Source: Escherichia phage AV126
Length of the DNA stretch: 64,000 nt
Sequence record: OR352956.1
Direction: 5' to 3' (one strand)
Shown here: in pieces, positions 7,349 to 25,465 of the stretch
Numbering within the stretch: the stretch's first letter is position 1
Layout: each line of letters opens with the position of its first letter
Program-made: the position numbers and the translations under genes
Notes under the pieces: generated by a model
The model's database searches: none
What the model saw: the letters and a program-made list of their open reading frames with translations, nothing else
Told to the model about the DNA's origin: nothing

Positions 7349-7559
7349 TGATACGCTCCACAGTTACTTTAACAATATCGTCCATATTAATCTCATCTCC
7401 CAAGACTTCAATAACACCTTCCTCATAAAGTCGAGCACATTCTTCCCATACTTCTGCTTCCGTCATTCCACCTTCAATCTTATTTGCAAGACCTTTAATA
7501 ACATCTTCATTTTGTTCATCAATAAGAATTGAAACATTAAAGCTCACTAGTTTACGCAT
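7341..7559 (-). CDS. hypothetical protein
   Basis: 72-aa ORF, overlaps upstream stop by 8 nt. Confidence 0.4.
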   Translation of the reverse strand: MRKLVSFNVSILIDEQNEDVIKGLANKIEGGMTEAEVWEECARLYEEGVIEVLGDEINMDDIVKVTVERIND

Positions 7560-7569
7560 TGTTTTCTCC

Positions 7570-7737
7570 TTATACCTCTAAATGGAAAGTTTCTTTAGAT
7601 ACAAAATCGTATCCACCTTTTTCAAGCCAGTCATTGTAAACCTCATCGGCTTGAGACTCTATCATAAAATACCGAGTGGTAACTTCGTCTCCGACAATAC
7701 GCACAATTTTATAGCAAATCATGATACCATTTCCCAT
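7570..7737 (-). CDS. hypothetical small protein
   Basis: 55-aa ORF not in track; ATG shares one base with upstream TAA (TAATG). Confidence 0.3.
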   Translation of the reverse strand: MGNGIMICYKIVRIVGDEVTTRYFMIESQADEVYNDWLEKGGYDFVSKETFHLEV

Positions 7738-7928
7738 TAATCTTCCTCCAGATCAATTTCATTATAGCAATGTATGCAGTAGCCATCGTTGTGCATATGC
7801 TGTTCATAAGACATATCTTTACCACAAGACCAACAACGAATATCACCATCGTCCCATTCACGTTCTTCTTCGCCTTCAAATGCATCTGGTAGGTAAGGCA
7901 TACCAAGACAATGTAAATCGTAATGCAT
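7737..7928 (-). CDS. small zinc-ribbon protein
   Basis: Start re-set to ATG after RBS AGGAGGAG; CWSC...CIHC four-Cys pattern; track ORF extended into polymerase 3' end. Confidence 0.45.
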   Translation of the reverse strand: MHYDLHCLGMPYLPDAFEGEEEREWDDGDIRCWSCGKDMSYEQHMHNDGYCIHCYNEIDLEED

Positions 7929-7935
7929 ATCTCCT

Positions 7936-7960
7936 CCTATAAAGGGGCAGAAGCCCCTTA
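7936..7960 (-). terminator. hairpin after polymerase gene
   Basis: AAGGGGC-agaa-GCCCCTT then TTTAT on minus strand. Confidence 0.5.
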
Positions 7961-7977
7961 TAAAACAATATGTTAGA

Positions 7978-10900
7978 TCAATGACAGGATGCCCAGGAAT
8001 TACCCACGTCATATCCGGCAGTAAGCTGAACATTAAGATTGTAAAATTCTCCAGCCTTAGTAACAGCTAAAGCAGCAAGTTCACCTGCCCGACTATAGGC
8101 TGTAAACCATCCACCTTTGGGAGATTCATGAATGTTAGCCCAAATTTGCCCTGTCTCTTTTTCCTTATTATGCTTCCATTCTTCAACTTTAGCAAGGCAT
8201 TCTTTATCAATTTTCTTTTGTTCTTCAGGATCGTCTACTTTCTTCCAACCTAATGATTCAGGTGAAAACCATTTAAATTCTACAAGGCTACGAGAAACTT
8301 CAAGCTGGGCTTCATCGTGATATGCAATCATTTGTTGCACGAAGTCTTTATTCTTCCAGTCATCTTTAAAGAAGTCAACACTTAGCCCTTCTTCTTCGAT
8401 CATGTCGTCATAAATAACCATTGCACGTTTAGCACAGATAACCCCACCACTTTGGAACAGAGAGTTAAGAATCGCGTGAGCAGAACGAGTAGGAACCTTA
8501 CGACCGTCAATACCCAAAACATACTGTTTACCAGTCTTAACCCAGAAATCGTTTAAACGTTCTTTAAGACGCGCCAGTGGGAATGCAGCTTCCCAGAAAG
8601 CATCGAACACCAGTTGCCCTGTGTATTTATCGCTACCAATTGTTTTAGCAACCTTGTCTGCTTGAGCGCCGTACGTGCAGTTACCTGTCAACGTGATAAA
8701 ACCATTCTGACGCATAACAAAAGATTCATTCTTGGTTGAGATACAGAATACATCTGTTACTCGTGAAAAAGCTTTTGTCAACCTCTGTCCTGAAATAGTT
8801 TGTCCGTTATTGATTGCCAACGTTAACATGCCATCTTTTTGAACAGAACCATACGCAATATTACCTGTCATATTGATAGCCAAAGAAACAGCGTCGCTAA
8901 TCTTACCTTTCTTTTGACGGATAACAAGACTGCCGTTTGGACGCTTATGACCATCTGCCATCCAGAATGCCTCTAAGAATGCTTCCAACACAGCTTGACC
9001 TTGATTAGCAATTAATGTAGACCAGTCCACTTCGTGCTTATTTTGACCCACTTCAACGCCACATTTAGTCAAAAATTCCCTAAACTGACTCTTATTAGGA
9101 CGTAATGAATGCATCGTTCCAGATACATACTCGTCAAATGTGAAGATATCTCCCACAGCCTCACGTGCTTCTTCTAAGAATTTTTTCTCATCTTGATCTA
9201 CCGTGACTGTAATACCCATTACTTTATTTCTGGCTTTGCTAGACCACTTATAGTAGCCATCCGAAAGAAGCCAGCCTAAGAAACGACCTTCTTCCACTGT
9301 TAGAGTAGACACCACACCAGATCGCCCTGCTGCAATTATGTTTGACTCCGAGTTTAAATCCTCTGTAGATCTACGCTCCACTTGCATATACTTAACATTG
9401 TTACCATCTGATCGCATAGTTTTTCTCTGTGCGTTAATCCACATATGATCGTTAGTAACTTCTACTTTGAACCACTTGTTACCGAGAGAGACAACTTCTG
9501 CATCGTTATAGTCCCACAGCTTAAGAATAGGGGTATATTCGTAAAGAGCGGTGTGAGTATTATAAGATAAAACTTCATCCCCTACAAAAAGATCTTTACG
9601 TTTCTTCCAACCCGTTCTTGTTAACACTTCCGTATTATCTACAGGTACACAACCGTATTTAACGCTCTTAGCAGGACCACGTTCAAACTTACGTCCAATA
9701 ATATCAGTAATATGTTTTGCCATCATAGTATGCACATCGTTTGGTTTTTCTAACAGAAGTGCATTACAGTAAGCATGATCAGGATTATCATATCTCCACG
9801 TATAATGCGACTCAATCTTCGCCTCTAATGAATCAAAGTCATAACCAATCTGGAAGTATTTAGGAACCTCTACACCAAACAGGTTACGCATCTGCCATCC
9901 AAACAAAGAGGTAACACGAGGAATATTGGCTACAGACCTATGCTTCATACGAGAGGTTGCTGCATCGCATGTAGCCGCTGGCGTAGGTATACGTCCATCT
10001 GCACGAACTGCTGCCAAGAAACCTTTGTTGTATTCTTGATCTTCTTCGTCTTCTTCCCAATCAGCACCGCCACCTAAAATAGAGTTCCTACGATGCTTAT
10101 ACGTTAAGTATTCTACAATCTGTGTAGCATAAGGAAACTTCTCACCCAAAGCTTGCAGGTTAGGACAAATTTCTTTTTCCTGACCTTTGGTAAAACATGG
10201 GTTAGTCAATACTTTAAGACCGCGACCTTTACCTTTTGCTATACGCTCTTGAATCTTCCTTTCCAAGGTTTCCGGTGTGCACTCCAGATGATCACAACGG
10301 TCCTGACAAAAATTAGAAGATAGAGTTTGCTCAACGTAAGCTCGAATACCTTTCTGAAGTTCTTCCTCACTCTTTTTAATCTTGGTGCCAGATTTAAGAG
10401 TCAAATCTTTATCTTTATATTCCGATGGTACCCAACCTAATCCTACAAGCCAGTTTTTAATATGGGTTGTATCGTTTAATGTTGCAGGGATGTGAGGATC
10501 ACATAAAGGCTCATCTGCTGCAACTGGCAGTTTCCACTCTTTCCCCAACATAACTAACCACCAATCTCCATCCCTCTCTTCCAAATGACCATCATGTTTC
10601 TTAGCAAAATTGATCATATGGTTAGTTGGCTCTAAGTTCTTTTTAATTTGCAACTTAGGTGGAATAAAAGCCTTAAGATAGCCTTTTGTTGCTGGTTTAG
10701 GTGGCAAAATAGGCTCAACGAGTAAACGAAGACGCTCCATTTCTGCATCCAAAAAAGCAAGGTTCTCTTCTGCTTGCTTCATGTTAAAAGCAAACCCACG
10801 GTGTTCCTGGCGCGTGATAATGTCTGCTACACGTTGTTCAAGTTCAAATGGACCTTCCCATTTATCATAATCCCCCCATTCTTCCATGAGGTAATTATAT

Positions 10901-11547
10901 ACACTTGTGTTGGCTTTGTTATCATAGATACAGTAATAAAGCATATCCGCAGCAAAAGTCTTAAATCGATCTTCTTCTGGAATCTCTTTACGGAAATCTA
11001 TTTTTACATCCCCACCTGCCTTTCGAGAAAGTGCTGCCAAACTATGTCCTGATTTGCCCTCAATCTTTCGATCTGGGTTTAACACTTTACTCAAAATCAA
11101 GGAGTCAATAAGTTTTACCTTATTTTTGCCCCACGTATTATATTTAACACTGTAATCTAATCCATAAAACAGTTTTGTAGCCAACCAGTCGTAGTTGATA
11201 CCGTTGTGAGCCACAGCCATTTCAACCAGATATTCAGGCTTGTCTTTAAAATAACCTTCATGATTAATAAAGTCTGGGAAATCTTTTAGTTGAAAATGCG
11301 TGTAATCTTGCGCCACATACTCTTTAAGAACATATGTGTATTTACCATCTGACTCTTCATAAGGACGCCCATCAAAGATGTATTTAGGGCCATCGTGGAA
11401 AGCTACTATTTCTCCTGTTTCATGGTTCTCTAAGACAATACAGTGCATTTGAAATGTGTCTTTGAGACGATAAGGACTAGCTAAATAATCAATAGTGTCA
11501 TTATTCAACAATCCGTTTGCTTCAATATCCCATGTAAACTTACTCAC
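7978..11547 (-). CDS. family A DNA polymerase (T7 gp5-like, 3'-5' exonuclease domain) interrupted by an intein
   Basis: 1189 aa; N-terminal DIEANGL and VAHNGINYD exo motifs like T7; motif B RGPAKSVKYG/CTYGAQ split by a 324-aa insertion. Confidence 0.9.
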   Translation of the reverse strand: MSKFTWDIEANGLLNNDTIDYLASPYRLKDTFQMHCIVLENHETGEIVAFHDGPKYIFDGRPYEESDGKYTYVLKEYVAQDYTHFQLKDFPDFINHEGYFKDKPEYLVEMAVAHNGINYDWLATKLFYGLDYSVKYNTWGKNKVKLIDSLILSKVLNPDRKIEGKSGHSLAALSRKAGGDVKIDFRKEIPEEDRFKTFAADMLYYCIYDNKANTSVYNYLMEEWGDYDKWEGPFELEQRVADIITRQEHRGFAFNMKQAEENLAFLDAEMERLRLLVEPILPPKPATKGYLKAFIPPKLQIKKNLEPTNHMINFAKKHDGHLEERDGDWWLVMLGKEWKLPVAADEPLCDPHIPATLNDTTHIKNWLVGLGWVPSEYKDKDLTLKSGTKIKKSEEELQKGIRAYVEQTLSSNFCQDRCDHLECTPETLERKIQERIAKGKGRGLKVLTNPCFTKGQEKEICPNLQALGEKFPYATQIVEYLTYKHRRNSILGGGADWEEDEEDQEYNKGFLAAVRADGRIPTPAATCDAATSRMKHRSVANIPRVTSLFGWQMRNLFGVEVPKYFQIGYDFDSLEAKIESHYTWRYDNPDHAYCNALLLEKPNDVHTMMAKHITDIIGRKFERGPAKSVKYGCVPVDNTEVLTRTGWKKRKDLFVGDEVLSYNTHTALYEYTPILKLWDYNDAEVVSLGNKWFKVEVTNDHMWINAQRKTMRSDGNNVKYMQVERRSTEDLNSESNIIAAGRSGVVSTLTVEEGRFLGWLLSDGYYKWSSKARNKVMGITVTVDQDEKKFLEEAREAVGDIFTFDEYVSGTMHSLRPNKSQFREFLTKCGVEVGQNKHEVDWSTLIANQGQAVLEAFLEAFWMADGHKRPNGSLVIRQKKGKISDAVSLAINMTGNIAYGSVQKDGMLTLAINNGQTISGQRLTKAFSRVTDVFCISTKNESFVMRQNGFITLTGNCTYGAQADKVAKTIGSDKYTGQLVFDAFWEAAFPLARLKERLNDFWVKTGKQYVLGIDGRKVPTRSAHAILNSLFQSGGVICAKRAMVIYDDMIEEEGLSVDFFKDDWKNKDFVQQMIAYHDEAQLEVSRSLVEFKWFSPESLGWKKVDDPEEQKKIDKECLAKVEEWKHNKEKETGQIWANIHESPKGGWFTAYSRAGELAALAVTKAGEFYNLNVQLTAGYDVGNSWASCH
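8680..9651 (-). mobile_element. intein with LAGLIDADG homing endonuclease, inserted in polymerase motif B
   Basis: Begins CVPVDNTEV (block A), TNDH (block B), LGWLLSDGY and LEAFWMADGH (LAGLIDADG pair), ends NGFITLTGN with +1 Cys. Confidence 0.8.
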
Positions 11548-12341
11548 TATTCCTCCTTTCTAATGTTCTCCAGAACCCACTGAAGTTCTTTTAAACTTAA
11601 ACTTCTTACTCCCGCAGTTTTACTAGCTTCAGTTTTAAGTAACGGGTAAGCCTCAATGATACGTGTTTTAAGATCAGAAGTCAAGGCTTTTAAAAAATAG
11701 GTAGATGCTTCAGATAAAGAATCTTCTTCTGTTAGCACTTTACCTGCGCTTGCTCCGGCTCTCCTAACGGCTATGTCGTAGTCTTTGCTGTTACCTAATA
11801 CGAACAGTCGATTCTCTCCTAAAACAACGGGAGAACGCTTCTGGCTGCGTTTAATCCATATCTGGAATACACAAGGAACATCCCAAGGTTCTCCATGAAG
11901 AATAAAAGATCCTTTGGGACACTCTTCTTCGTGAAGAAGATGCATATAAGGATTTAGTTTGTGTGCAAAAAAGATTTTTTGAAATGTGCGAGGCAAGATA
12001 AAACAAATACCACCTTCGTTATCCAACATTTCAGCACAATGGTTAAAGAACTTAATGGCAAGACTAGCATTTTTTCCAAATGGAGGATTACCGACAAAAG
12101 CAGTTACACTACCAACAGACTCAACAGATTGAGCTAAAAAATCTGCCTCAATACAATCTTCAAACTTAGGGTCAATATCAAAAGAAGTTATGTTTTTAAA
12201 ACAAGAAGAGAAAGCTCCTTCTCCCGCAGATGGTTCTACGTAGTTAGCTTCCTCTCCAAAAATTTCTTTGATCTTATCACATAAGAACCCCGCATAAGCG
12301 GGGTTAGTGTAATATTGATCAAGTGTGTTCAACTTGCTCAA
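11547..12341 (-). CDS. DNA N6-adenine methyltransferase (putative)
   Basis: 264 aa; EPSAGEGAF (SAM-binding) and VGNPPFGK (NPPF catalytic motif). Confidence 0.6.
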   Translation of the reverse strand: MSKLNTLDQYYTNPAYAGFLCDKIKEIFGEEANYVEPSAGEGAFSSCFKNITSFDIDPKFEDCIEADFLAQSVESVGSVTAFVGNPPFGKNASLAIKFFNHCAEMLDNEGGICFILPRTFQKIFFAHKLNPYMHLLHEEECPKGSFILHGEPWDVPCVFQIWIKRSQKRSPVVLGENRLFVLGNSKDYDIAVRRAGASAGKVLTEEDSLSEASTYFLKALTSDLKTRIIEAYPLLKTEASKTAGVRSLSLKELQWVLENIRKEE

Positions 12342-12876: not shown

Positions 12877-14653
12877 AATAGTTGCTATCCGTAGGCAAAT
12901 TAGCAGGATTGTTGAAATACTGCTCTTTGTCATGCAGAGTTGCAGTTCTAATGTCATAGTAAAACTGCCCTGCCGGACCAGTTTCCGAGAACTCACGGTT
13001 TTTTAGGATAAAGCAATGAGTCGTATTGCGTTCTACAGGGTCTTCAGCGGCTTTATCTCGTTCCAAAGCCAAGGTAATACCAGCACCTTTAGCCAAGAAA
13101 CTACTACCCATTGCATCGTCCTCTGTTAAGTGTTCATTGCCACCATTAGCCGACTTCTTAACGTGTGAGATGACGATAATGGTTATAGCATACTCTTTCA
13201 TGATGCGCTTCAACCATGTTGCTAACTCTTCCTGGGCTTGAACATCCATACCAGAAAGCAAATCAGAATAAGGGTCGATAACAAGAATTGTTACTCCAAA
13301 ATAGATGATCATCTCCAAAACTTTTTCTTTGATAGACTCCACATCTGCTCCACGATCATCACACACATAAAAACGTGGTGATCCATCTTCTCTTTCGTAA
13401 AAATCTAGGATTTTTTCTTTATTCTCTTCCAAGATTTGAAATTTCTCTTCCGGTGTTTTCCTGTGTAGAGGAATATGCAGGAACGAGGACAACAGGTTAC
13501 GAGAATATTTCTTATAAGTTGCTTCCAAGGACAGAATACCTAGGGTATGTTCTGGGTGCGCAACAATAATATGTTTGGTGATCTCGTTCACCATCAAAGT
13601 TTTACCGATACTGGTCTTTGCCAGGATAACTGTAATCTCTTCCTCTACTAAACCACCACCCAGCATATTTGCAGCAACACGCATAAAAGGAGGCAAGGTA
13701 ATCATCTTGGATTCCAAGCATTCTAATGCAGCTTCATACAAGACATTAGAAGCATAAACACCTGCTGGGGTGTATAGACGAGCACTCCAAAAAGCTTTTA
13801 CGAAATCTTTTGCACGACCTTCTTCCAGATACTGATTGGCATCCTTAAGATCCATCTGCATACGGTAGACTTTGTTACGAGGCAGCACCTTAACAATATT
13901 TTCAAATGCCTCGTTACCTGCTTTGTCGTTATCCATGCAAACAATAATCTTCTTAAATTTTTCAAAGAAAGGATATTGTGCCTGAACTTGTTTATACATA
14001 CTGGTTTCACCAGTTGTGCCACTTACTACGGCTGGAAGCTCATATTTACTGTCCAAGTTTTCAGATAGCATTTGATAAGCTGCCAGAGCATCGTGTTCAC
14101 CACCTGTAATTACAACAGTATGAGAACGATCTGCAAAACGAATTTGTCCAAAAAGATCTACATCTTTACCTACTTGACCAATAGGTTTACTGAAATCTTT
14201 AGGATGAATACGACGCTTAAAACCAACCAATTCTTTACCGATGGTAGTTGGATATAAACAACTTTCTACTACCATCTGATCTCCTTCCTGACGGTATTCA
14301 TAACGAACACCATAGAAAGATGAAACTTTTTCTTTAATGCCTCGATAACCACGTGGGTTGGTTGATGTTTCTTGAACAATTTTACGATGAATCTGTTTAT
14401 TAAATTCCGAACCCACAATCTCCTCCTCTTCTTCTAAAACTTCACCATTTTCTCGTAACCATTCTACGCTAGGAATAGTGTATTCACACGCAAAGCACTT
14501 AGCACCTTTATGCTCTCCATTAGAATCTAATCCATAAACCATCAGGTTATTACGAGAGCGATCCTTGCCATTTTTCATGCAGCGCGGACAACCTGTATGT
14601 CCTTCCTTGCTAAGATCAACATCAAATCCATATTTAGTTATAATGTGCGACAC
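12875..14653 (-). CDS. bifunctional DNA primase-helicase (T7 gp4-like)
   Basis: 592 aa; N-terminal Cys4 zinc ribbon (CPRC...CFAC), TOPRIM-like GGEHD and DNDKAG, helicase Walker A TSIGKT. Confidence 0.85.
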   Translation of the reverse strand: MSHIITKYGFDVDLSKEGHTGCPRCMKNGKDRSRNNLMVYGLDSNGEHKGAKCFACEYTIPSVEWLRENGEVLEEEEEIVGSEFNKQIHRKIVQETSTNPRGYRGIKEKVSSFYGVRYEYRQEGDQMVVESCLYPTTIGKELVGFKRRIHPKDFSKPIGQVGKDVDLFGQIRFADRSHTVVITGGEHDALAAYQMLSENLDSKYELPAVVSGTTGETSMYKQVQAQYPFFEKFKKIIVCMDNDKAGNEAFENIVKVLPRNKVYRMQMDLKDANQYLEEGRAKDFVKAFWSARLYTPAGVYASNVLYEAALECLESKMITLPPFMRVAANMLGGGLVEEEITVILAKTSIGKTLMVNEITKHIIVAHPEHTLGILSLEATYKKYSRNLLSSFLHIPLHRKTPEEKFQILEENKEKILDFYEREDGSPRFYVCDDRGADVESIKEKVLEMIIYFGVTILVIDPYSDLLSGMDVQAQEELATWLKRIMKEYAITIIVISHVKKSANGGNEHLTEDDAMGSSFLAKGAGITLALERDKAAEDPVERNTTHCFILKNREFSETGPAGQFYYDIRTATLHDKEQYFNNPANLPTDSNY

Positions 14654-14665
14654 TTTGTTCTCCTG

Positions 14666-14944
14666 TTAAAATGGTTCGTTAGTCTCCATCATATATTCTG
14701 CTTCTAGTTCTTCCATGTGCTTTCTAAATTGGAAAGCAATTTCTGCTACAGTTACATTTAAATCTTTTTCAAAAACTTCTGTAGATCCTTCATAAAAACG
14801 AATACCGTCAATTAAAAGCCCTCCGTGGTAATCCCAATCGCTTTCACGAGAAAGTGGATTAGGTTCTTCATAATAGTAATCCACCTCCACGACCAAGGCT
14901 TTCCCGTTACGAGCGGTGTATTCAAAATCAAAAGTGTTAATCAT
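14666..14944 (-). CDS. hypothetical protein
   Basis: 92-aa ORF in operon. Confidence 0.45.
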   Translation of the reverse strand: MINTFDFEYTARNGKALVVEVDYYYEEPNPLSRESDWDYHGGLLIDGIRFYEGSTEVFEKDLNVTVAEIAFQFRKHMEELEAEYMMETNEPF

Positions 14945-15888
14945 TATAACTCCTCAAATAAAAGCCTACGACGCTCATTCAACACATCAATGTGATAATG
15001 AGTCCTGACATACTTAGCTAATGCTAATCCTTTCTCCATGCAAACATCGGGAGCACTTAATAAGTATTCCGTAATATCTTTCCACTCGGAAGGTGTTTCA
15101 GCAAAGAATAACAAATCTTTAAACTCTTGTGTATGATAATTCTCACGAGGAGAGCAGATTAAAGGTAAACCCTTAGCACCTGCCTCAAGAATTTTAAGAT
15201 TGCTTTTTGCATTATTAAACACGTTATCGATCAATGGTGCAAGACTGATTTGATGACCATCGTAAGATTCCATGTAGTTGGCATATGGTCTTACACCTTC
15301 ATAAACACAAGTTGGTGCTACATTTTCCCTGATTAAAGACCATTCACGACTACTTAAAACTTCAGAATCCCTACGAAAACCACATATTGTAAGATCTTTA
15401 CCAAAATCGGGCAAGATAGCCAAATCTTGTTTATGTGTTTCACTTCCAGCCCAGACTAATGGAGTTTTGGAGTAGCGATCACGGGTCAACACAAATTGAC
15501 CTTCATCGTAAGGAAGTCCATTAGGGATTATGTGCACATTATCATTGTATTGTGAAAGTTCAACTTGCAAGGCAGGTGTCGTAGTTGTAACAAGATCACT
15601 GTGCTCTAAAAACCATTTTAAATGTTCACGAATACCTGATTCAAAAATACCTTCTAACATGTGTCCTTTTGGAATAACTAAAGAGTCATCCAAATCCATA
15701 ACCATTTTAAAGCCTAGGTTTTTAAGGGCTAAAAAGCCCTCTTTACCTTTTGTTGGCACTCCGTTAAAAACGAAAACGTTGTGTTTAGGTTGTGAAGAGA
15801 ACTGCCTTGAGTAAGGCAGCACTACCCTATGGAAATCGCAGACACTATAATTGATTCCGTTACGATTGTCAAGAATTATTTGTCCCAT
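14944..15888 (-). CDS. glycosyltransferase, GT-B fold (group 1-like)
   Basis: 314 aa; C-terminal SNLKILEAGAKGLPLICS resembles GT1/GT4 donor-binding motif; paralog of next gene. Confidence 0.5.
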   Translation of the reverse strand: MGQIILDNRNGINYSVCDFHRVVLPYSRQFSSQPKHNVFVFNGVPTKGKEGFLALKNLGFKMVMDLDDSLVIPKGHMLEGIFESGIREHLKWFLEHSDLVTTTTPALQVELSQYNDNVHIIPNGLPYDEGQFVLTRDRYSKTPLVWAGSETHKQDLAILPDFGKDLTICGFRRDSEVLSSREWSLIRENVAPTCVYEGVRPYANYMESYDGHQISLAPLIDNVFNNAKSNLKILEAGAKGLPLICSPRENYHTQEFKDLLFFAETPSEWKDITEYLLSAPDVCMEKGLALAKYVRTHYHIDVLNERRRLLFEEL

Positions 15889-15895
15889 ACTTCAC

Positions 15896-16843
15896 CTACA
15901 AACTTTCAATAACCTGGCGTCGCAACTCGTTTGCATCTGCCAGATTATAATGTGTTCGAACATGTTCAGCCAAGAACAAGCCACGATCTTCCCGATAATT
16001 TGGATTGCGAAGAAGCTTAACAATTTCGTAATGCCATTCTGCTTTATTCTCTGCGTAAGCAACAGCGCGAGCATCTACAGGGTTAAAATAAGGTAATACC
16101 TTAGAACAAACAATTGGAATACCTTTTGCTCCAGCTTCCAGGATTTTGAGATTGCTTTTACAATTATTAAAATCATTATCTACCAAAGGAGCTATAGCAA
16201 TAGCATGACTTTCGTAAACACTCATGTAATTATCTAAATCTTTTACAGCGGCTTTATATTTGGCATTTGGTAAATTTCTGCGAATCTTAATCCACTCTTG
16301 TCCCGTGATGCTTTGTGATGCTTCATATCCCGCAATAGTAAGAAGTTCATCATCGAAAGTATTAGAGACTAGTCGTAAGTCTGGTTCGTGACTAGCACCG
16401 CCAGCCCATACAACAGGGGTACCGGATGAACGATCATTTGACAAAGTGAATTGTCCGCTATCAAAAGGAAGTGCATTTCGGATCACAACAACATTCCTAT
16501 TTAAGTGACGGATCTTATATGCCAAATATTCCGTAGTCACAATAACCACATCAGCAAGCTTAACCATAGCTACAATAGCATGAGTGTTTGACTCGTATAG
16601 ACTTGCTAAATAATGTTCTGGATTAAGTTGGTAAAAATCATCTAAGTCTACAACAACCTTAACACCTTGACGTTTCAAAGATAAAACGTATTCTGCACCT
16701 TTAGAGTGGATACGGTTAAACACAACAACATCTTTCTTAGGTTGAATATTATTGTTGTTAAATGGTATAACAATACGATGATAGTCACAACCGCTGTGAG
16801 GTTTTGCATCAATTTTTAGTTTAGACCATTTTTTATTTGACAT
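15896..16843 (-). CDS. glycosyltransferase, GT-B fold, paralog
   Basis: 315 aa; SNLKILEAGAKGIPIVCS; collinear similarity to 14944-15888. Confidence 0.5.
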   Translation of the reverse strand: MSNKKWSKLKIDAKPHSGCDYHRIVIPFNNNNIQPKKDVVVFNRIHSKGAEYVLSLKRQGVKVVVDLDDFYQLNPEHYLASLYESNTHAIVAMVKLADVVIVTTEYLAYKIRHLNRNVVVIRNALPFDSGQFTLSNDRSSGTPVVWAGGASHEPDLRLVSNTFDDELLTIAGYEASQSITGQEWIKIRRNLPNAKYKAAVKDLDNYMSVYESHAIAIAPLVDNDFNNCKSNLKILEAGAKGIPIVCSKVLPYFNPVDARAVAYAENKAEWHYEIVKLLRNPNYREDRGLFLAEHVRTHYNLADANELRRQVIESL

Positions 16844-17516
16844 GTGCTAGTGCCTCCTCATAGGAAATTCGGATTTTCCCATTTTTAATATCCTCTAAAG
16901 ATGCTTTATATTCTTCCCAGTTAATCCCAATAGCAGCCTCTTTCTCTTCTTTTGTCAGGTTAGCAAAAGGCATAGGATTGTTTCCAAAAACATCGTCTGG
17001 GTGGATATAAGCCATGATACGAAGTGGACAAGGTGTTGCCTGAATACCATGATTCAAACCAGCAGCTTGCAAACGGTGTCCCCATTCAGCATCTTCAAAA
17101 CCATAACCGTGAGTGTAAGGACGGAAATAACCCATCTTCTCAACAACGGAACGAGAATACATTGCAAATTGACACATTGCAAGTTCCCAGAGAATAACTT
17201 CTCCTTTGCTTCCAACAACTTTATCTTTGAAATACTCCGGCATACCAAAGAAATCCCATCCTCCAGAGACAGCTTGATCTACAAAGTATGTTTCCCATCC
17301 CTCCATGACTGGGTAGCAATCATCGTCAAAAATAAACCAATAATCATAACCTTCTTCATAAAACTGGTGCATAAGTTCATTCCTGGCATAAGCTACACCT
17401 TTACGATCTGGATCGTTGAATACTCGAAAATCTGCACGTGGATCTGTTACAAGGTAGTCTTTAAGTGGACGGACACCTACAGTGATAACACCCACTCCGA
17501 TTTTAATATTTTCCAT
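16833..17516 (-). CDS. glycosyltransferase, GT-A fold (family 2-like)
   Basis: 227 aa; DxD-type FIFDDDCYP and GYGFEDAEWGHRL resembling GT2 motif. Confidence 0.55.
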   Translation of the reverse strand: MENIKIGVGVITVGVRPLKDYLVTDPRADFRVFNDPDRKGVAYARNELMHQFYEEGYDYWFIFDDDCYPVMEGWETYFVDQAVSGGWDFFGMPEYFKDKVVGSKGEVILWELAMCQFAMYSRSVVEKMGYFRPYTHGYGFEDAEWGHRLQAAGLNHGIQATPCPLRIMAYIHPDDVFGNNPMPFANLTKEEKEAAIGINWEEYKASLEDIKNGKIRISYEEALAHVK

Positions 17517-17524
17517 TTTCTCTC

Positions 17525-18088
17525 CTAAATAGTTTTACTGTGATCGTGACAGTGTAATAAATGATGTATAGACCGTTGAGGATTTGTTTGACCTAATCTG
17601 TAAATGTGAAACAGATACATTCCCCGCATCAATCCTAACCTCTTTCCTTTTTCATGTAAAGTGCGAGAGAAAATTAAGTCGAATTGGATAGATTTTTCTT
17701 CGAAAGGAATTTCGTTCCACAACGATTTTCTAAAAAGCAAAAAGAAACCTGCCAGAGGTGTTCCGAAAGGAACTTCTTCAACACTCACTTTATGATATTC
17801 TCTTGCAATCTTAGCATATTCTATATGGTTTAGAATATCTGGATCATCGTTAATTTGGTTAGAGAAAAGCTGATAACCACTACCTAACCTGTTACAAGTT
17901 GCACCTATTACATCAAAAGGTGGGTTTGAAATAACAAGCTCTTCAAGCATAGATGGTTGATCAGGCAGGAGGAACATTGTATCGGTATCTCTTAAGCACA
18001 CCCAACTATCATCTGGAAGAACGGCAATAGCTTCATTGATAGCCTTGCCGATATTTCCTGTCAGATAGGGAGTAATATAATAAATCAT
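17525..18088 (-). CDS. putative GT-A-like glycosyltransferase
   Basis: 187 aa; CLRDTDTMF DxD-like motif; adjacent to GT cluster. Confidence 0.35.
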   Translation of the reverse strand: MIYYITPYLTGNIGKAINEAIAVLPDDSWVCLRDTDTMFLLPDQPSMLEELVISNPPFDVIGATCNRLGSGYQLFSNQINDDPDILNHIEYAKIAREYHKVSVEEVPFGTPLAGFFLLFRKSLWNEIPFEEKSIQFDLIFSRTLHEKGKRLGLMRGMYLFHIYRLGQTNPQRSIHHLLHCHDHSKTI

Positions 18089-18104
18089 TCTCCCCTCCGT
18101 TATA

Positions 18105-18296
18105 TTAACTGTCAGCTACAATCCCACGTTTAATCATTTCTTGTTGGATTTGGATGACACGATCTCGTGCTTCCATATATTCTTTAAAAGATTCTTGGAG
18201 ATGGTCACGAGCTACATCCCGTAGTTTAATCAGTTTGTCGTTTGTCACTTCTTGAAGAGAGATTTCGCCAGTTTCATTGGTCCCAAGCGTTTTCAT
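18105..18296 (-). CDS. hypothetical small protein
   Basis: 63-aa ORF. Confidence 0.4.
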   Translation of the reverse strand: MKTLGTNETGEISLQEVTNDKLIKLRDVARDHLQESFKEYMEARDRVIQIQQEMIKRGIVADS

Positions 18297-18504
18297 TTAC
18301 AACCTCCTTAATAGCTACTGCACAGTTCTTACAAATACATTGACCTTTGTTCTTAGAAATTTCAATGTAAGGTTCATTTTCGTTTTCTCTGCGTCGTGAA
18401 TCGTATATTACAGTATTGAAGCAGACAACGCAAATGTTTTTAATAACGACATATTTTTGCACTTTTTGCTTAGTGCGAAAATTGACTTCAATGACTTCTC
18501 CCAT
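18274..18504 (-). CDS. small zinc-ribbon protein
   Basis: Start re-set to ATG after RBS GGGGAG (ATGA overlap with upstream stop); CVVC...CKNC. Confidence 0.4.
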   Translation of the reverse strand: MGEVIEVNFRTKQKVQKYVVIKNICVVCFNTVIYDSRRRENENEPYIEISKNKGQCICKNCAVAIKEVVNENAWDQ

Positions 18505-19410: not shown

Positions 19411-20013
19411 TTATGGACATTCATACCATTCTTTTTTACCACCGAAGGCCATCACCACATCGCAAATATCCAGACCAGCTTTACCTACACCATATGCTTT
19501 CAGTTTCCATTCCCCATCTTCACGAACCAAGGAAGCCACGTGGCAGATTGTGTTGCCAGCTACTTCAGGAGCTAGGAAGTCAAAATCCAGAATTTCCACA
19601 TTGCGCTCGGAGTCGAAGATTTTAAGCATACCTTCAGAAGCATGACCAAAACGTTTCAGACCTGTATCATCATCAATGGTCAGAACAAAGGCAATCTCTT
19701 GTGCATCAGGAGAGATTTTAGCCAGAGTAATATCAATCTGCTCCATGCTGCCAGTCCCATCACGAACATCGTCACCAGCGAAGGTAGAACGTTCAGGATC
19801 AAACTTGTTAGCATAGCAAACCAGATGACGTGCAGACAGCATTTCAGGATTGCCAGCGGCATTGTGACGACAAACCAGTGCACTTACATCCAGATCCAGT
19901 TTAGAATCAGATTTCCAAGAGAATTCCAGGCGCAGTTCTTTCAGAGCCGGAGCAACTTTCTTCAGGGAAATTTTTTCGCTAGAGCCTTTTTTCAGGGAAA
20001 TTTTATCATTCAT
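19411..20013 (-). CDS. terD: TerD-family stress protein
   Basis: 200 aa; DLDVSAL, GDDVRDGTGS, IDITL, EIAFVLTI, DGEWKLKAYG track E. coli TerD. Confidence 0.8.
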   Translation of the reverse strand: MNDKISLKKGSSEKISLKKVAPALKELRLEFSWKSDSKLDLDVSALVCRHNAAGNPEMLSARHLVCYANKFDPERSTFAGDDVRDGTGSMEQIDITLAKISPDAQEIAFVLTIDDDTGLKRFGHASEGMLKIFDSERNVEILDFDFLAPEVAGNTICHVASLVREDGEWKLKAYGVGKAGLDICDVVMAFGGKKEWYECP

Positions 20014-20028
20014 CTTTTGTCTCCTCTA

Positions 20029-20298
20029 TTATTTAAGTGTAATACCAGTTACAGTCAATTCTACTTCCAAAAGCTTAGATGTGTTTTGGATTGCTACTAA
20101 TTGTGCATGATGGTTTAGTTCTACAGCAGAATAATCATTTTCCCCATCATCTACTTTTAAATAAACAATAACTTCACTAAGGTCTAAACCATTTTCGTCA
20201 AATGCATTTTCATAGACGAAAGTATCTCCTACATCCAAATCTTTAATGGTAAGGCATCGTTTATTTACTTTTTGCTCATCAATTTCGAAGTTTAACAC
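20029..20298 (-). CDS. hypothetical protein, paralog family A
   Basis: 89 aa; LDVGDTFVY...TVTGITLK similar to 21320-21598 product. Confidence 0.45.
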   Translation of the reverse strand: MLNFEIDEQKVNKRCLTIKDLDVGDTFVYENAFDENGLDLSEVIVYLKVDDGENDYSAVELNHHAQLVAIQNTSKLLEVELTVTGITLK

Positions 20299-20527
20299 TT
20301 CTTCCTCCTAATGTTATCTCCGGTTTGTATATACGAAGAATTATAGCATTTTCATTTTCTTTGTCAACCCATTCTTCATAATCGGGCCATACATGAATCT
20401 CTACTCTACTTACAATATTTTCCATCCGCACAGTCCCAATGAAATATTCTTTGAGACTGCGCATAATGAAAGCTTCTCTCTCGCGCCAATAATTTTCTAC
20501 GACTTGAGAGGCAAGCTCGTCGATCAT
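20279..20527 (-). CDS. hypothetical protein
   Basis: 82-aa ORF, ATGA-type overlap with upstream gene. Confidence 0.4.
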   Translation of the reverse strand: MIDELASQVVENYWREREAFIMRSLKEYFIGTVRMENIVSRVEIHVWPDYEEWVDKENENAIILRIYKPEITLGGRSVKLRN

Positions 20528-21318
20528 TTTTTAGCACCTACCTTAACAACCCACTCTCCGAACTCTTCAGATAAGAGTTTGTCATAAAGCTCTGAATCTG
20601 TCAAGTCTAAATCTTTAATGCCAATAAAACCAACATTGTCATAAGCATTTGCCAGTTCTTTCAGGAAGCTGAACTTCTCATTACCAACGCCAACCATGAA
20701 CCAATAGATAGGCTTATTCTTATTCTCTTCAATAAGACGACGAACAGCACTAGGATCACCATTCTCACCATCTGTCTGGAAGAATACAACACCAGGAGTA
20801 ACGTCAGCACCTGGTTCAGATACAGCTACAACTTTTTCACGCTCTACAGATACTGTTTCAGTTTTACCCAGCAGACGATTAAAGAAGCCTTTCTTTGGAG
20901 CCTCCTCTTGTACCACTTGTTTAGTGGTAACATATTTGGTAACAGTGCCAAAATACTCATCGTAGATATCTGCCATTACAGGGGCGTAATTTGTTCCACC
21001 TCCGATACGAACATTACGCATACATTTACCAACATAGTCATCGTAAACGTCTGCTGTTGCTGGAGTAAGCTCTTGAGAACTCGTATTGAAGGCCCACATG
21101 TCAATTTGTTCATTATCGTCGAACAGCATACCAAAAGGAAGCAGTTTGCCTACAAAATCACTCACTACCCCACGAGTATATAGACCATGCATACTACCAG
21201 AAATATCTAGAGCACATGCTACACGAAGAACAATCTTACCTTCATTCAGGTTCTTATTCTTTTTCAGAGAGAAAGCAAGGTTTTCTTGACGTTTTTTCAG
21301 GCTGATTTTCTCGGACAT
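20524..21318 (-). CDS. von Willebrand factor A domain protein (TerY-like)
   Basis: 264 aa; MIDAS DISGSM, GGGTNYAP, TDGENGD; N-terminal ISLKK like TerD. Confidence 0.65.
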   Translation of the reverse strand: MSEKISLKKRQENLAFSLKKNKNLNEGKIVLRVACALDISGSMHGLYTRGVVSDFVGKLLPFGMLFDDNEQIDMWAFNTSSQELTPATADVYDDYVGKCMRNVRIGGGTNYAPVMADIYDEYFGTVTKYVTTKQVVQEEAPKKGFFNRLLGKTETVSVEREKVVAVSEPGADVTPGVVFFQTDGENGDPSAVRRLIEENKNKPIYWFMVGVGNEKFSFLKELANAYDNVGFIGIKDLDLTDSELYDKLLSEEFGEWVVKVGAKK

Positions 21319-21319
21319 A

Positions 21320-21598
21320 TTATTTCTCCTTCTTAAGTGTAATATTGGTAACTTCTAAATCTACTTCCACCATATTTGTATCTGGTGGGATGCAATGAGT
21401 ATAGCCTCGTTGTGCTAGTGATCCATTAATACAGATCGCACTGTTTGTGGAATTTTTAATGAACACCAAGTTACGGTAGGTATCCAACCCTGCGTCTTCA
21501 TAGGCATCATAATACATGAATGTGTCCCCTATGCCAAGGTCTTCGAAAGCAATAGGTAAATCCTGACACTTTTCTTCTTGAATATTGAATCTAAACAC
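21320..21598 (-). CDS. hypothetical protein, paralog family A
   Basis: Probable GTG start after RBS GAGGAGG; LGIGDTFMY...EVTNITLK; track ORF extended to 21664. Confidence 0.4.
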   Translation of the reverse strand: MFRFNIQEEKCQDLPIAFEDLGIGDTFMYYDAYEDAGLDTYRNLVFIKNSTNSAICINGSLAQRGYTHCIPPDTNMVEVDLEVTNITLKKEK

Positions 21599-22154
21599 GC
21601 ATACCTCCTCTACCAATTTTGAAGCCCAAATCGTAAGCTTCCTTAGTGATCTTTTGTAACTCACTTATAGGAAGTGTTACAAGAGGATCATCTTCTTCAA
21701 TTTCCATCTTGTCATCTTCTGTTTCAATGAGAGTATTATGCACTTTGTGATAAGGGTTGTCAACACGTTTAAACTTATTCTTTTCTGTGCTGAAAAAACA
21801 ATCTGGATCTTCTTCACCATCACCCCAACCTTGGTTAGGATCTCCGTCAGATTGTTCTGTAGGGATTTCACCTGTAAAATACTCTTCCAGCACCATAGCG
21901 ATACCGTCCCTTGGATTCGAGGAATGCATTAAATCACAAACCTTACCCCAATCCATAGCCCATTCGAACCGTTCACGAACGCCATTTTCATTCTCCTTTC
22001 CAGAGAAAACACAACCATAACTATCATAGTTGCCATACATCTCTTCAATAACAACACCATCCTTCAAAAGAAAGAGATAGCAAGGTGATCCGTCGAAAGA
22101 AGTAGAAAGGGCAGCTTTGCCCGATTCCTTACACAAAAAGCTAAAACAACCCAT
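21591..22154 (-). CDS. hypothetical protein
   Basis: 187-aa ORF, acidic C-terminal half. Confidence 0.45.
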   Translation of the reverse strand: MGCFSFLCKESGKAALSTSFDGSPCYLFLLKDGVVIEEMYGNYDSYGCVFSGKENENGVRERFEWAMDWGKVCDLMHSSNPRDGIAMVLEEYFTGEIPTEQSDGDPNQGWGDGEEDPDCFFSTEKNKFKRVDNPYHKVHNTLIETEDDKMEIEEDDPLVTLPISELQKITKEAYDLGFKIGRGGMRV

Positions 22155-22351
22155 TACAAACCCTCCTTCAGATTATCAAGAGCTACAGTGGTTTCACAAA
22201 ATTCTCCATATGCTTTATGATGTTCTAGAAAAGCTTCAGGTCCACCCCAATCATTATCGTGTGTATTCCAACCATCAATAAAAGCATCTTCAATGATTGT
22301 GATCAGTTCCTGTCGAGTCAACGTAATGGTATCAGGTTTTGGATTATGCAT
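22154..22351 (-). CDS. hypothetical small protein
   Basis: 65-aa ORF. Confidence 0.4.
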   Translation of the reverse strand: MHNPKPDTITLTRQELITIIEDAFIDGWNTHDNDWGGPEAFLEHHKAYGEFCETTVALDNLKEGL

Positions 22352-22517
22352 CTTCTTTCTCCTCTAAAATATGAAACCCATAGCTACAATAGTCCTGAAA
22401 GGTTTCGTGTGCAAGATCTTCTATATCCTCTTGAGACATATCATCTTCAATTTCGATATCCACAACCTCATTGCATCCACACCAAGCAGTTTCAATATTC
22501 ACTCGTAAAGTTTTCAT
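22344..22517 (-). CDS. hypothetical small protein
   Basis: 57-aa ORF not in track; ATGA overlap with upstream stop. Confidence 0.3.
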   Translation of the reverse strand: MKTLRVNIETAWCGCNEVVDIEIEDDMSQEDIEDLAHETFQDYCSYGFHILEEKEDA

Positions 22518-22720
22518 TCTTCTTCCTCATTAAATTCCACATCAGAAATAACTTTAAATCTACCAAAGTTACGACAACCTTCATAGATATATCCATCACG
22601 ACAAGCTGCAAAAATATCTGGAGTTTGTAGCTGGGTCATTGGGGCAAAGCGTTTCTCTTCGTCATAACGAACACCTATTTCTCCAGCTTGTTCGTCAAGC
22701 ATGTATACACGGATTCTCAT
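22514..22720 (-). CDS. hypothetical small protein
   Basis: 68-aa ORF. Confidence 0.4.
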   Translation of the reverse strand: MRIRVYMLDEQAGEIGVRYDEEKRFAPMTQLQTPDIFAACRDGYIYEGCRNFGRFKVISDVEFNEEEE

Positions 22721-23829
22721 TTACCCAACCCCTTCTTAACAGCGTCAACCATCCCATCTTCGAGAGATTGAACTTCATTGATGTAATCAACACGGGCAGC
22801 ACGGGCTTCCGTATTGATGCGGTTAGTTTCTTCCAACATTTTAACCAAGTTTTCCTGATCGTGACGCAGAGTTTCAATATCCAACACTTGACGGTTAGCC
22901 AGTGCTGCTGCTTCGATCTGATTCTGTGTGGCAAGATCGCTACCCAGTTTAATTGCCAGGTTAAATTCATCAAGAACGTTATTCTGTGTCTCTGCGGCTT
23001 TCATTTGACGTAAGCTTTCAATATACATTGAGAAGTTAGCAGAGTAAGCAGGAATAACATTATTTACTATGTTACGCGCAGATCGCATTAAGCTTGCAGA
23101 AACTTTTTGCATACCTTGCACACGTGGTCCCATTTGGACACACAGTAGGCGCAATGCTTTTAAATCCGCAATACGAATCTCCAGAAGATCCAAGGTATCT
23201 CGGATCGCTTGTCGCTGTTCTACCGCATCTTCTGGAAGAGCAGCCAAAGCTTGTTCTTCTTTTTCATAGGTCGCTGTTAGAAGCTGCATATCTCGGTTCA
23301 AACTTGCAGCATATTGTCCAATAGCTTGATGTAGCTTTTCAAGGTATACCAAAGAATCTTCTTCTTTGCGAATATCCATTTGAAGGTTCTTTACCAACTC
23401 TTCAATACGGTTATTAACATTATCAAACTCCCCAAACAGGTCTTCTTTCATACCCATAACTTTTTTAATGAGTTTAGTAATACCCTTGCTTTGTTTAATA
23501 GAGTTTGGATCAAGTTGTTTTGCCTGTTTAATCAAAGCTGTGAGTCGTTCACTCATCTGATCGCCTTGATTACTACGTTGATGTTTTAATACCTCAGCAT
23601 TCAAGGAACGCAAGGTTGTTCCTGCCTCTGCCCCAATCTCTTCGATCTCTTGTCGGGTCATAGAAGGCAAAACTGGAACTTCTTGCGGTGCCGCTGGTGC
23701 ATAAACAGGACTGGCATCTAACACGCTTGGAGCGAATACAGATTTACTTGCATCTGTTGTTGCAGCGAATACACTCATTTCAGACTTCTTCTGACCACCA
23801 GTAGCTGCTTTTAAAAATGGACTTGTCAT
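22717..23829 (-). CDS. TelA-like (toxic anion resistance family) protein, putative
   Basis: 370 aa, mostly helical/coiled-coil; assignment rests on size and Ter neighbourhood, not a verified motif. Confidence 0.4.
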   Translation of the reverse strand: MTSPFLKAATGGQKKSEMSVFAATTDASKSVFAPSVLDASPVYAPAAPQEVPVLPSMTRQEIEEIGAEAGTTLRSLNAEVLKHQRSNQGDQMSERLTALIKQAKQLDPNSIKQSKGITKLIKKVMGMKEDLFGEFDNVNNRIEELVKNLQMDIRKEEDSLVYLEKLHQAIGQYAASLNRDMQLLTATYEKEEQALAALPEDAVEQRQAIRDTLDLLEIRIADLKALRLLCVQMGPRVQGMQKVSASLMRSARNIVNNVIPAYSANFSMYIESLRQMKAAETQNNVLDEFNLAIKLGSDLATQNQIEAAALANRQVLDIETLRHDQENLVKMLEETNRINTEARAARVDYINEVQSLEDGMVDAVKKGLGK

Positions 23830-24416
23830 TCTTCATTCTCCTCTTCTGCATCTCTTATATATGGTGAAACACCGTACTCTTTAGCTACTTTAACCCAATC
23901 ATCCCATTTATATAACCATAATTTTCCTTCAGTTCCTTCTTTATCTGATTTCAACCACATGTTAGGTTGCTTGCCTGGGTACATGCGATTAGGTTTACGA
24001 TTATAACCTCTAACACATCTTGTCGCAAACCTATCTACCAGAACAAGAACATATTTATATTCGTGGTTCAACGGCTCTTTGGAAGTGGCTTTAGGATTAG
24101 CCCCTAATTCTGCTGCCAGTTTTTGCCAATGAGCACCGTGCCTACTAAACTTACCCATACAACCATCAATAGCATGAGCAATTTCGTGCTTCATTGTATC
24201 CACGATCATATCTCTTGTGGAGTTCTTATGCAAGTGCCAATTTACAACAACAATTTTATCTCGGTAGTTGCACCAACCGAAAGAGTTATTCACTTTGTTT
24301 CTAACACAAGCTTTATATCCTGCTTCACGTAACATGTTGTAGTAAACAGGAAAATCTTCTTTTATTTCCTGCATCACTTCCCACCACAAGAGTTGCAAGT
24401 CTCTCTCGGTATGCAT
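23826..24416 (-). CDS. SprT-like zinc metalloprotease
   Basis: 196 aa; HEIAH (HExxH) preceded by WCNYRDKIVVVNW. Confidence 0.5.
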   Translation of the reverse strand: MHTERDLQLLWWEVMQEIKEDFPVYYNMLREAGYKACVRNKVNNSFGWCNYRDKIVVVNWHLHKNSTRDMIVDTMKHEIAHAIDGCMGKFSRHGAHWQKLAAELGANPKATSKEPLNHEYKYVLVLVDRFATRCVRGYNRKPNRMYPGKQPNMWLKSDKEGTEGKLWLYKWDDWVKVAKEYGVSPYIRDAEEENEE

Positions 24417-24419
24417 AAC

Positions 24420-25013
24420 TTACACCTTAAAAGCGAAATGCGTGGTCGTGGCTTCAAAATCAGGGCCAGATAAACTTGCACTGAAATCTGAAATATTTGT
24501 AATTAAAAAGCTTTTATGCATACCTAACACAGCCACGCTTTCAATATCTTCTACTAACATTTCAATCATGTTAGAAACATGGCTGAACGTATAGTTTTGT
24601 TTTTTGATGGTGTAGAAAGAAAGACTCCCACCTGCTGTATAAGATACCTCTTCAAAATCTTTAATCGTATATTGTGTGCCATCAGTAAAGAAAATGGTAG
24701 CTTTATTAGTAGCACGTTTCTTGTTTTTTGGTCCTTTTTTACGTTTACTGCGAGTAGGCAAACCGTTTGGAAATACCGTAGCTACAAATTCTTCAGGAGA
24801 AACCTCCTTACCGAAATCATAACCGTAAGAAACAGCGTCTATAAACTCGTCGTCTTCATTTTTAAAATAATGAAAATAGGGCCAATTTGAGAGATTATCG
24901 AGCATCTTATGCTCATCCACAGCAGAGAACGTATCCCTCAAAGCACGTGTGATTTGCAAAGCATTAGGCAAACTTTTAACACCTGTAATGGAAGTACGAA
25001 TAGAAATTGTCAT
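24420..25013 (-). CDS. hypothetical protein
   Basis: 197-aa ORF. Confidence 0.45.
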   Translation of the reverse strand: MTISIRTSITGVKSLPNALQITRALRDTFSAVDEHKMLDNLSNWPYFHYFKNEDDEFIDAVSYGYDFGKEVSPEEFVATVFPNGLPTRSKRKKGPKNKKRATNKATIFFTDGTQYTIKDFEEVSYTAGGSLSFYTIKKQNYTFSHVSNMIEMLVEDIESVAVLGMHKSFLITNISDFSASLSGPDFEATTTHFAFKV

Positions 25014-25027
25014 TGTTTTTCTCCTTA

Positions 25028-25465
25028 TTAACGTCGCTTGCTACGAGATGAACTCTTTTTACTTAAAGGGCTATTGTAAGATTTACGAGTTGTATAGCTA
25101 CTATTTGTTTTAAAAGTTTGTCTCGGCTTTTCATAAGTTTTTATCTCTTGTTTAGGCTTACCATAAAAATTAGTTTTCGGCTTAGGTGTATTATAATGCT
25201 TATTAATAATCGTTCTGTTATCGTTATAATCTCCACTGCTACGATTACTACCGCCACTCATCATATGCCCTAACAACATACCTGTAGCAAACTCACCAAC
25301 ACCGCTACTACTAGAACCGCCACCATTGTTGATAATAGTTGTATCTCCGTCAGATCCTTGTTGAGCGTATTGTTGAGGAGGTTGTTGGTATTGTGCAGGA
25401 TTTGTTTCATCCTCGCAAGCTGTTAAAAAGATACAACCAATTAAAATCAGGGCTAGTTTTTTCAT
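25028..25465 (-). CDS. lipoprotein
   Basis: Start re-set to MKKLALILIGCIFLTAC (lipobox LTAC) after RBS GAGGAAAG; Gln/Pro/Gly-rich mature part. Confidence 0.55.
   Translation of the reverse strand: MKKLALILIGCIFLTACEDETNPAQYQQPPQQYAQQGSDGDTTIINNGGGSSSSGVGEFATGMLLGHMMSGGSNRSSGDYNDNRTIINKHYNTPKPKTNFYGKPKQEIKTYEKPRQTFKTNSSYTTRKSYNSPLSKKSSSRSKRR

Follow-up and report, generated by a model that had tools for sequence, protein, structure and literature searches.

A four-gene glycosyltransferase cluster of Escherichia phage AV126 and its putative role in virion protein O-glycosylation

The 64,000-nucleotide stretch of Escherichia phage AV126 analysed here (OR352956.1; hereafter the window) carries on the minus strand, at 14944-18088, a cluster of four glycosyltransferase (GT) genes, which is probably a cassette for the O-glycosylation of virion proteins. 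The reading builds on the folds and the paralogy of the enzymes, on the conservation of the cassette in unrelated phages, on its placement next to capsid or terminase genes, and on the co-variation of its content with short C-terminal Ser/Thr tags of capsid and tail-tube proteins; all of these are observed, and what is said beyond fold, homology, synteny and co-variation is inferred. In the order of transcription the genes encode GT187 (17525-18088, minus strand; 187 aa), a minimal GT-A-like enzyme with the DxD motif D34-T-D36; GT-A227 (16833-17516, minus strand; 227 aa), a GT-A fold enzyme with a DDD motif at residues 64-66 and a YGFED motif at 138-142; GT-B2 (15896-16843, minus strand; 315 aa), of GT-B fold; and GT-B1 (14944-15888, minus strand; 314 aa), a divergent paralog of GT-B2. 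A reading made from the sequence alone had drawn the cluster at exactly these limits, and had correctly recognised the folds, the motifs and the duplication, the GT-B pair being 41% identical (E 1e-77). It had also set the cluster downstream of the primase-helicase gene; transcription runs from the cluster towards that gene, the cluster being upstream.

Bases 14600-18400 of the window are 98-99% identical to more than 60 records of Phapecoctavirus (phAPEC8-like myoviruses, Stephanstirmvirinae), in the RefSeq versions of which all four genes already carry the label "glycosyltransferase". The biochemical class of the genes is thereby previously annotated; the acceptor had only been guessed, as DNA.

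A mobile glycosyltransferase cassette

GT187, GT-A227 and GT-B form a mobile cassette, as newly described here. The nearest "bacterial" homologs of GT-B are prophage genes. The ordered trio GT187, GT-A227, GT-B was identified, by hidden Markov model (HMM) and BLAST searches, in prophages of Enterobacter huaxiensis and Serratia M24T3, where it is flanked by lysis genes and by HNH-TerS-TerL, and where the GT187 homologs are found at 41-44% identity. In a prophage of Pseudomonas alliivorans the trio belongs to the head module, where it directly follows the gene for the major capsid protein, and P. silvicola-type prophages carry GT-A227 and GT-B right before the terminase. Klebsiella phage KP2025 hosts GT187 and one GT-B at a site syntenic with the window, Streptomyces phage Zuko a GT-B relative and a UDP-glucose dehydrogenase right before the terminase. 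Overall, GT-B relatives are encoded by more than 575 IMG/VR stretches.

A lone chromosomal homolog of GT-B is found in Burkholderia dolosa and in Trinickia; the genes next to it encode an invasin-type adhesin and a protein of 555-571 aa. The location beside a surface adhesin agrees with a protein acceptor. The three-gene unit, which includes an intimin/invasin-type inverse autotransporter, spans 3025-8440 in B. dolosa and 1742-8026 in T. symbiotica (positions of the stretches examined), and may represent an adhesin glycosylation locus; its 555-571-aa protein is 34% identical between the two species.

C-terminal tags and cassette content

In cassette-bearing prophages the major capsid and the tail-tube proteins both end in Thr-Thr (ANTTT and ANPTT in Enterobacter, ANPTT in Serratia, SSSTT and EPTT in P. 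alliivorans). Capsid and tube proteins of viral contigs, confirmed by Pfam, end in AAPTT, THPTT, AGSTT, EPTT, EATT or TWTTT. At 99 loci with a GT-B relative, 17 of 2070 crude open reading frames (ORFs) end in TT, compared to 6.2 expected. When ten TT-ending ORFs were scanned with Pfam, eight turned out to be capsid, tail-tube, head-completion or tail-completion proteins, and two matched no family.

The association of the tag with the cassette was examined in two sets of related capsids. The first comprises 79 viral contigs which encode relatives of one TT-ending capsid, at 59-100% identity. The protein ends in T in five out of five contigs carrying the cassette, four of which end in PTT, and in none of the 73 lacking it, where the ends are PTP, TAP, DAP or ATP (Fisher p 5e-8); 28 of the 73 cassette-free contigs have at least 8 kb on either side. 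The second set draws on the Enterobacter/Serratia capsid family, limited to relatives with 6 kb or more of upstream sequence, and is cleanly split into three states (Fisher p 5e-15). Capsids end in GG when there is no GT (20/20), in GS or TS when the only GT is of the GT-A227 type (phrog_1579; 31/31, the tube proteins ending in GS), and in TT when the full cassette is present (2/2). The single enzyme of the intermediate state is a 486-aa GT, the N-terminal domain of which is of the GT-A227 type, and its gene is placed before HNH-TerS-TerL. GT-A227 is a candidate for the enzyme linked to the C-terminal Ser/Thr tag. The correspondence between tag and cassette repeats in several unrelated capsid families. 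As an observation in its own right, 31 prophage-like IMG/VR contigs carry the 486-aa phrog_1579 GT just before HNH-TerS-TerL (at 4674-6134 of one stretch, as an example).

Comparison with known systems

In the literature found, glycosylated phage particles are described only for mycobacteriophages, and the glycans are reported to act as an antibody shield. Virions of phage Che8, capsid included, have been experimentally reported to carry O-linked glycans made by phage GTs. The Che8 capsid protein gp6 ends in KTGS, the major tail protein gp11 in SDGS. Freeman and colleagues (2023, Cell Host Microbe) are reported to have located the glycans at the C-terminal end of the subunits which make up the capsid and the tail tube. 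The GS tag is the same found in the enterobacterial prophages carrying only the phrog_1579 GT, and such prophages look like a Che8-like virion glycosylation system outside mycobacteriophages. The gp108-110 system of Che8 features, as the window cluster does, several phage-encoded cytoplasmic GTs. Genes 108-110 adjoin an HNH gene at one end of the genome, the terminase genes opening the other end of the linear map; similarly, the temperate relatives of the cassette have their GTs at the HNH/terminase end of the genome. Both Che8 and the temperate phages with the cassette or the single GT-A227-type enzyme have a short tag shared by the C-termini of capsid and tube proteins and ending in a hydroxyl residue, GS in the former, and GS, TS or TT in the latter.

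The enzymes can be connected in steps. The phrog_1579-type prophage GT matches phrog_1579 (2e-246), phrog_2456 (7e-56) and phrog_8858 (7e-18); GT-A227 is a phrog_2456 and Che8 gp108 a phrog_8858 protein, and the homology of GT-A227 to the GT domain of gp108 is transitive. Cluster F mycobacteriophage GTs were reached at E 1e-8 by tblastn with GT-A227, and no sequence-level match was found between the GT-B and GT187 families and the Che8 GTs. Unlike Che8, the cassette is accompanied by a TT rather than a GS tag, the hosts are Gram-negative, the window cluster is located in the replication module, and a complete dTDP (deoxythymidine diphosphate)-rhamnose pathway is found alongside. The likeness to A064R of Chlorovirus PBCV-1, and to the enzymes glycosylating giant-virus capsids, is at the fold level only, and the PBCV-1 system differs in the eukaryotic host, the linkage to Asn and the acceptor logic.

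Candidate acceptors and sugar supply

In the lineage of the window, the capsid protein ends in ...ELVVKLTTA (Phapecoctavirus, Justusliebigvirus and Klebsiella phage KP13-26) and the decoration protein in ...VVFTS. The homologs of a Vequintavirus end in ...KATLKGE and ...TLGEE, respectively, and no GT-B match was found in its subfamily among the phage records searched. A speculative candidate acceptor is the colanic-acid-degrading tailspike. The 3' end of its gene occupies positions 1-548 of the window on the plus strand, and the translation ends in ...VVDVPTT; the ortholog of the close relative vB_Ec-G1 is full-length (1017 aa) and features Tail_spike_N and beta-helix domains. In 140 kb of vB_Ec-G1, TT occurs within the last two to three residues of three proteins only, which are the capsid, a 67-aa ORF and the tailspike. 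The tags of the lineage agree with the model, as sequence evidence weaker than that from the temperate phages.

Olsen et al. noted that phapecoctaviruses and phi92-like phages encode a complete dTDP-rhamnose pathway, the role of which they guessed to be the rhamnosylation of DNA. In vB_Ec-G1 RmlA, RmlB, RmlC and RmlD all score above the NCBIfam equivalog cut-offs, and the rml genes lie approximately 75 kb from the GT cluster, outside the window. Among the matches listed, RmlC and the GT cluster reside in the same phage clade, which includes Phapecoctavirus, Justusliebigvirus, phiWec-like phages, Citrobacter phage Tr1 and Klebsiella phages KP2025 and 05F01. A gene resembling those for nucleoside diphosphate (NDP)-hexose 4,6-dehydratases is found within the GT cassette of the Enterobacter prophage and of a metagenomic myovirus.

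In the model proposed, the four soluble, cytoplasmic GTs would assemble a short glycan on virion proteins that are abundant and exposed at the surface, using hydroxyl residues at the very end of the C-terminus. The likely targets in the lineage would be the major capsid protein (...KLTTA), and perhaps the decoration protein (...VVFTS) and the tailspike (...VPTT), the tags plausibly being the acceptor sites. Either GT-A227 or a GT-B may start the glycan, which would be extended by the other enzymes, and the duplicated GT-B could contribute either a further linkage or specificity for a further acceptor. At least one of the sugar donors would probably be provided by the dTDP-L-rhamnose pathway of the phage itself (RmlABCD), rhamnose being a presumed component of the glycan. 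By analogy with Che8, the benefit could be a glycan coat masking the particle from antibodies, proteases or adsorption.

Several points weigh against this model. The tags of the window lineage are not the clean terminal TT of the temperate phages, the capsid ending in TTA; the sheath and tube proteins carry no tag; and the GT cluster resides in the replication, not in the structural module. Being a single clade, the lineage contributes its association of tag and cluster as one evolutionary event. The direct BLAST match of GT-A227 to gp108 is marginal (E 0.01). P. silvicola-type prophages host GT-A227 and GT-B, yet their capsid ends in FDGL. No correction for phylogeny was applied in the Fisher tests, the calling of ORFs was crude, and the absence of the cassette was judged only within 10 kb. 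In the literature on these phages, no report was found of glycans on Stephanstirmvirinae virions. Only speculation was retrieved by combining Phapecoctavirus, phAPEC8, Stephanstirmvirinae, phi92 or Justusliebigvirus with glycosyl or rhamnose.

The data taken together suggest a general rule, by which a GT cassette associated with a C-terminal Ser/Thr tag extends Che8-type glycosylation to Gram-negative phages. The broader notion is given an even chance that an unrecognised and widespread O-glycosylation of Gram-negative-phage virions exists, marked by tags of one or two C-terminal residues on capsid and tail-tube proteins, GS/TS when a GT-A227-type enzyme acts alone, and TT when it is joined by GT187 and a CDYHR-motif GT-B in the three-gene cassette, and that in phAPEC8-like and phi92-like phages an expanded version, made up of the four GTs and RmlABCD, sets a rhamnose-containing glycan on the capsid and a tailspike. 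These phages have a broad host range and are common in therapy and biocontrol collections, and a glycan coat, if real, would matter for their immunogenicity, pharmacokinetics, stability and detection. Such a coat would also account for the dTDP-rhamnose pathway of their genomes, long noted and unexplained. The sequence rule (GT cassette plus capsid/tube Ser/Thr tag) could then be exploited to predict glycosylated virions from phage genomes at large, and would aid the engineering of glycan display.

Alternative acceptors

The sequence-only reading had listed DNA, host surface glycans and virion proteins as acceptors, choosing none, and had centred its proposed checks on the glycosylation of DNA bases. 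The position of the cassette, the co-variation of the tags and the chain leading to Che8 gp108 speak for virion proteins, the sensitivity to restriction against DNA. Were DNA the acceptor, as guessed for the rhamnose pathway, rhamnose or other sugars would be transferred onto hydroxylated or hydroxymethylated bases to counteract restriction, as in T-even phages, RB69 and RL38JI; this is regarded as highly improbable. The phi92-like phages Bas60-62 of the BASEL collection, which carry the orthologous four genes, have been described as "exceptionally susceptible" to restriction-modification systems. The Durham phages Paula and PATM, in which the cluster is 98-99% identical, are reduced 7 logs by BREX (bacteriophage exclusion), and have been grouped with the phages targeted by BREX, not with those targeted by BrxU, a type IV modification-dependent nuclease which cuts DNA containing 5-methylcytosine, 5-hydroxymethylcytosine (5hmC) or glucosyl-5hmC. 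These phenotypes are those reported in the literature for sister phages with the same cluster, not for the window phage itself; the sensitivity of such phages to restriction and BREX counts against DNA glycosylation. A search for base-hydroxymethylase genes, advised by the earlier reading, returned none, and no 5-hydroxycytosine synthase or TET/JBP dioxygenase either, among the larger ORFs of the window and their annotated orthologs or in 140 kb of vB_Ec-G1. In the latter (the last 11 kb lying outside) no ThyA-type hydroxymethylase or hydroxylase, 5-hydroxycytosine synthase or TET enzyme is annotated, and the sole thymidylate synthase matches ThyX only. Separately, this 332-aa "thymidylate synthase" (21315-22313 of the vB_Ec-G1 stretch, outside the window) is long for its family and matches ThyX weakly (30.9 bits, the cut-off being 87.9). 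The cassette is also carried by small temperate prophages, and no DNA polymerase or base-modifying gene was found in the regions read, which cover early as well as late genes in the prophages of Enterobacter and P. silvicola. The best structural matches of the window enzymes belong to GT4, with sugars, lipids or proteins as acceptors. Of the four window proteins three are acidic, which does not favour DNA as acceptor either. The system differs from the T4 alpha- and beta-glucosyltransferases, and from the DNA GTs of RB69, DLP3 and RL38JI, in having no partner enzyme for hydroxylated or hydroxymethylated bases, in the lack of a restriction-resistance phenotype in the sister phages, and in being structurally closer to cellular GT4 enzymes than to DNA GTs.

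Alternatively, intermediates of the lipopolysaccharide (LPS) core, O-antigen, enterobacterial common antigen or colanic acid could be altered at the cytoplasmic face of the membrane, either to block superinfection or to keep the progeny from sticking to debris. Such remodelling of the host envelope is unlikely. None of the four proteins has membrane segments, and Gtr-like flippase or polymerase partners are missing; moreover, neither the change of capsid and tail-tube C-termini with the content of the cassette, nor the presence of the latter inside the head module of P. alliivorans, would find an explanation. The BASEL authors argued that it would be futile to modify abundant surface glycans completely in the course of a lytic cycle. 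The contiguity of the cluster, in this lineage and in KP2025, with TerD, vWA-TerF, TelA, TerC, phosphoribosyltransferase, HAD and macro-domain genes raises the further option that the sugar acceptor is a small molecule, such as a nucleoside-like product of the adjacent Ter, phosphoribosyltransferase and HAD genes, or else a host protein. This is deemed very improbable. The idea of a Ter-linked metabolite was set aside because prophage cassettes have no Ter genes nearby, and an acceptor of this kind gives no reason for the co-variation of the C-terminal tags.

Folds, motifs and families

The two GT-B proteins consist of two Rossmann-like domains, the C-terminal one binding the nucleotide sugar, and have thus a GT-B fold; the two GT-A proteins, like GT-A (GT2-like) enzymes, comprise one Rossmann-like domain and carry a DxD metal/nucleotide-sugar motif. 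All four are predicted to be soluble. GT187 matches phrog_14179 (E 3e-112), and both GT-B2 and GT-B1 match phrog_7162 from end to end. None of the four proteins is matched by any NCBIfam model, and GT187 has no Pfam match either. Searches of PDB sequences with GT-B2, GT-A227 and GT187 gave nothing usable, and the matches in BFVD were all unannotated phage GTs.

GT187 and GT-A227 are unrelated to each other by sequence comparison. An exhaustive HMM search assigned 975 cluster representatives to the GT187 family. Many of the homologs measure approximately 180 aa; in others, of approximately 400 aa, the domain is fused behind a TOD1/MUCI70 GT-like domain. The DxD motif is conserved in the family, in which GT2-type signatures are weak.

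The EX7E motif of the GT-B proteins is incomplete. The second Glu (E236) is present, the site of the first being occupied by the conserved block C228/K229/S230/N231. Because the first Glu is replaced, and no Pfam score exceeds the gathering threshold, these are GT-B enzymes which are not demonstrable members of GT4. Compared to bacterial GTs of the GT4 family (PimA, BshA, WaaG, PglH-like) they are shorter, measuring about 315 aa, lack the first Glu of EX7E (the family sequence being N-x-C-K-S-N-L-K-x-L-E), and feature conserved N-terminal CDYHR and DxDD motifs of their own.

The duplicated GT-B pair

GT-B2 is more similar than GT-B1 to the single-copy homologs of other phages, the identities being 46-63% and about 36-40%, respectively. 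Both copies are probably active, because GT-B1 retains every one of the 29 residues which are invariant in the family alignment. The pair may plausibly carry out two successive or alternative sugar transfers. The duplication is common to Justusliebigvirus, in the records of which two GT-B places are found. In OZ035770.1 (Justusliebigvirus alia) the tandem pair is replaced by one chimeric GT-B gene encoding 327 aa (2708-3691 of the stretch examined), the N-terminal part of which derives from the GT-B2-like and the C-terminal part from the GT-B1-like copy. The crossover falls within a 108-bp stretch which is common to both paralogs and lies where the C-terminal domain begins, in a conserved part. 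The GT-B pair can therefore collapse by homologous recombination, as seen in a deposited phage genome.

Genomic context

The four GT genes overlap or are separated by gaps of at most 8 nt, and a strong ribosome-binding site precedes each of them. They are part of a long minus-strand block, in which Ter-family genes, a SleB-like hydrolase, the four GT genes, a 92-aa ORF, the primase-helicase, an N6-adenine methyltransferase and an intein-containing DNA polymerase follow each other in the order of transcription. Promoters and terminators were counted in a scan at about the same numbers as in shuffled sequence, and the operon was not delimited.

The small acidic 92-aa ORF (14666-14944, minus strand; isoelectric point 4.2; phrog_4240) has a start overlapping the stop of GT-B1 (ATGA). 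It is 64% identical to an ORF of phage PaulScherrer and 48% to one of KP2025, and has no counterpart in the prophage cassettes. The flanking 92-aa and 63-aa ORFs were considered as members of the system and rejected, their conservation being confined to the myovirus lineage.

The DNA polymerase ORF (7978-11547, minus strand) encodes 1189 aa, compared to 865 aa in phage SKA64, and the extra 324 aa or so look like an intein. The PaulScherrer ortholog is annotated as "intein-containing DNA polymerase precursor", and the vB_Ec-G1 gene is also long (3333 nt). The ORF at 11547-12341 (minus strand) resembles N6-adenine methyltransferases, carries an NPPF motif, matches phrog_5172, and has a TTG start abutting the stop of the polymerase gene. 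At least two more DNA methyltransferase genes are found in relatives, yet the sister phages stay sensitive to restriction.

A full gene set of the tellurite-resistance type spans 19411-29326 (minus strand), with TerD at 19411-20013 and vWA-TerF at 20524-21318. The window positions of the TelA, TerC, phosphoribosyltransferase, HAD hydrolase and macro-domain orthologs follow from the gene order of SKA64; at the site corresponding to the Ter block of the window, Klebsiella phage KP2025 also encodes TelA, vWA and TerD. Further along, the GC skew changes sign at about 41-42 kb (window about 40000-43000), and the genes switch from the minus to the plus strand; here a boundary of divergent transcription separates the replication block from a set of small early genes.

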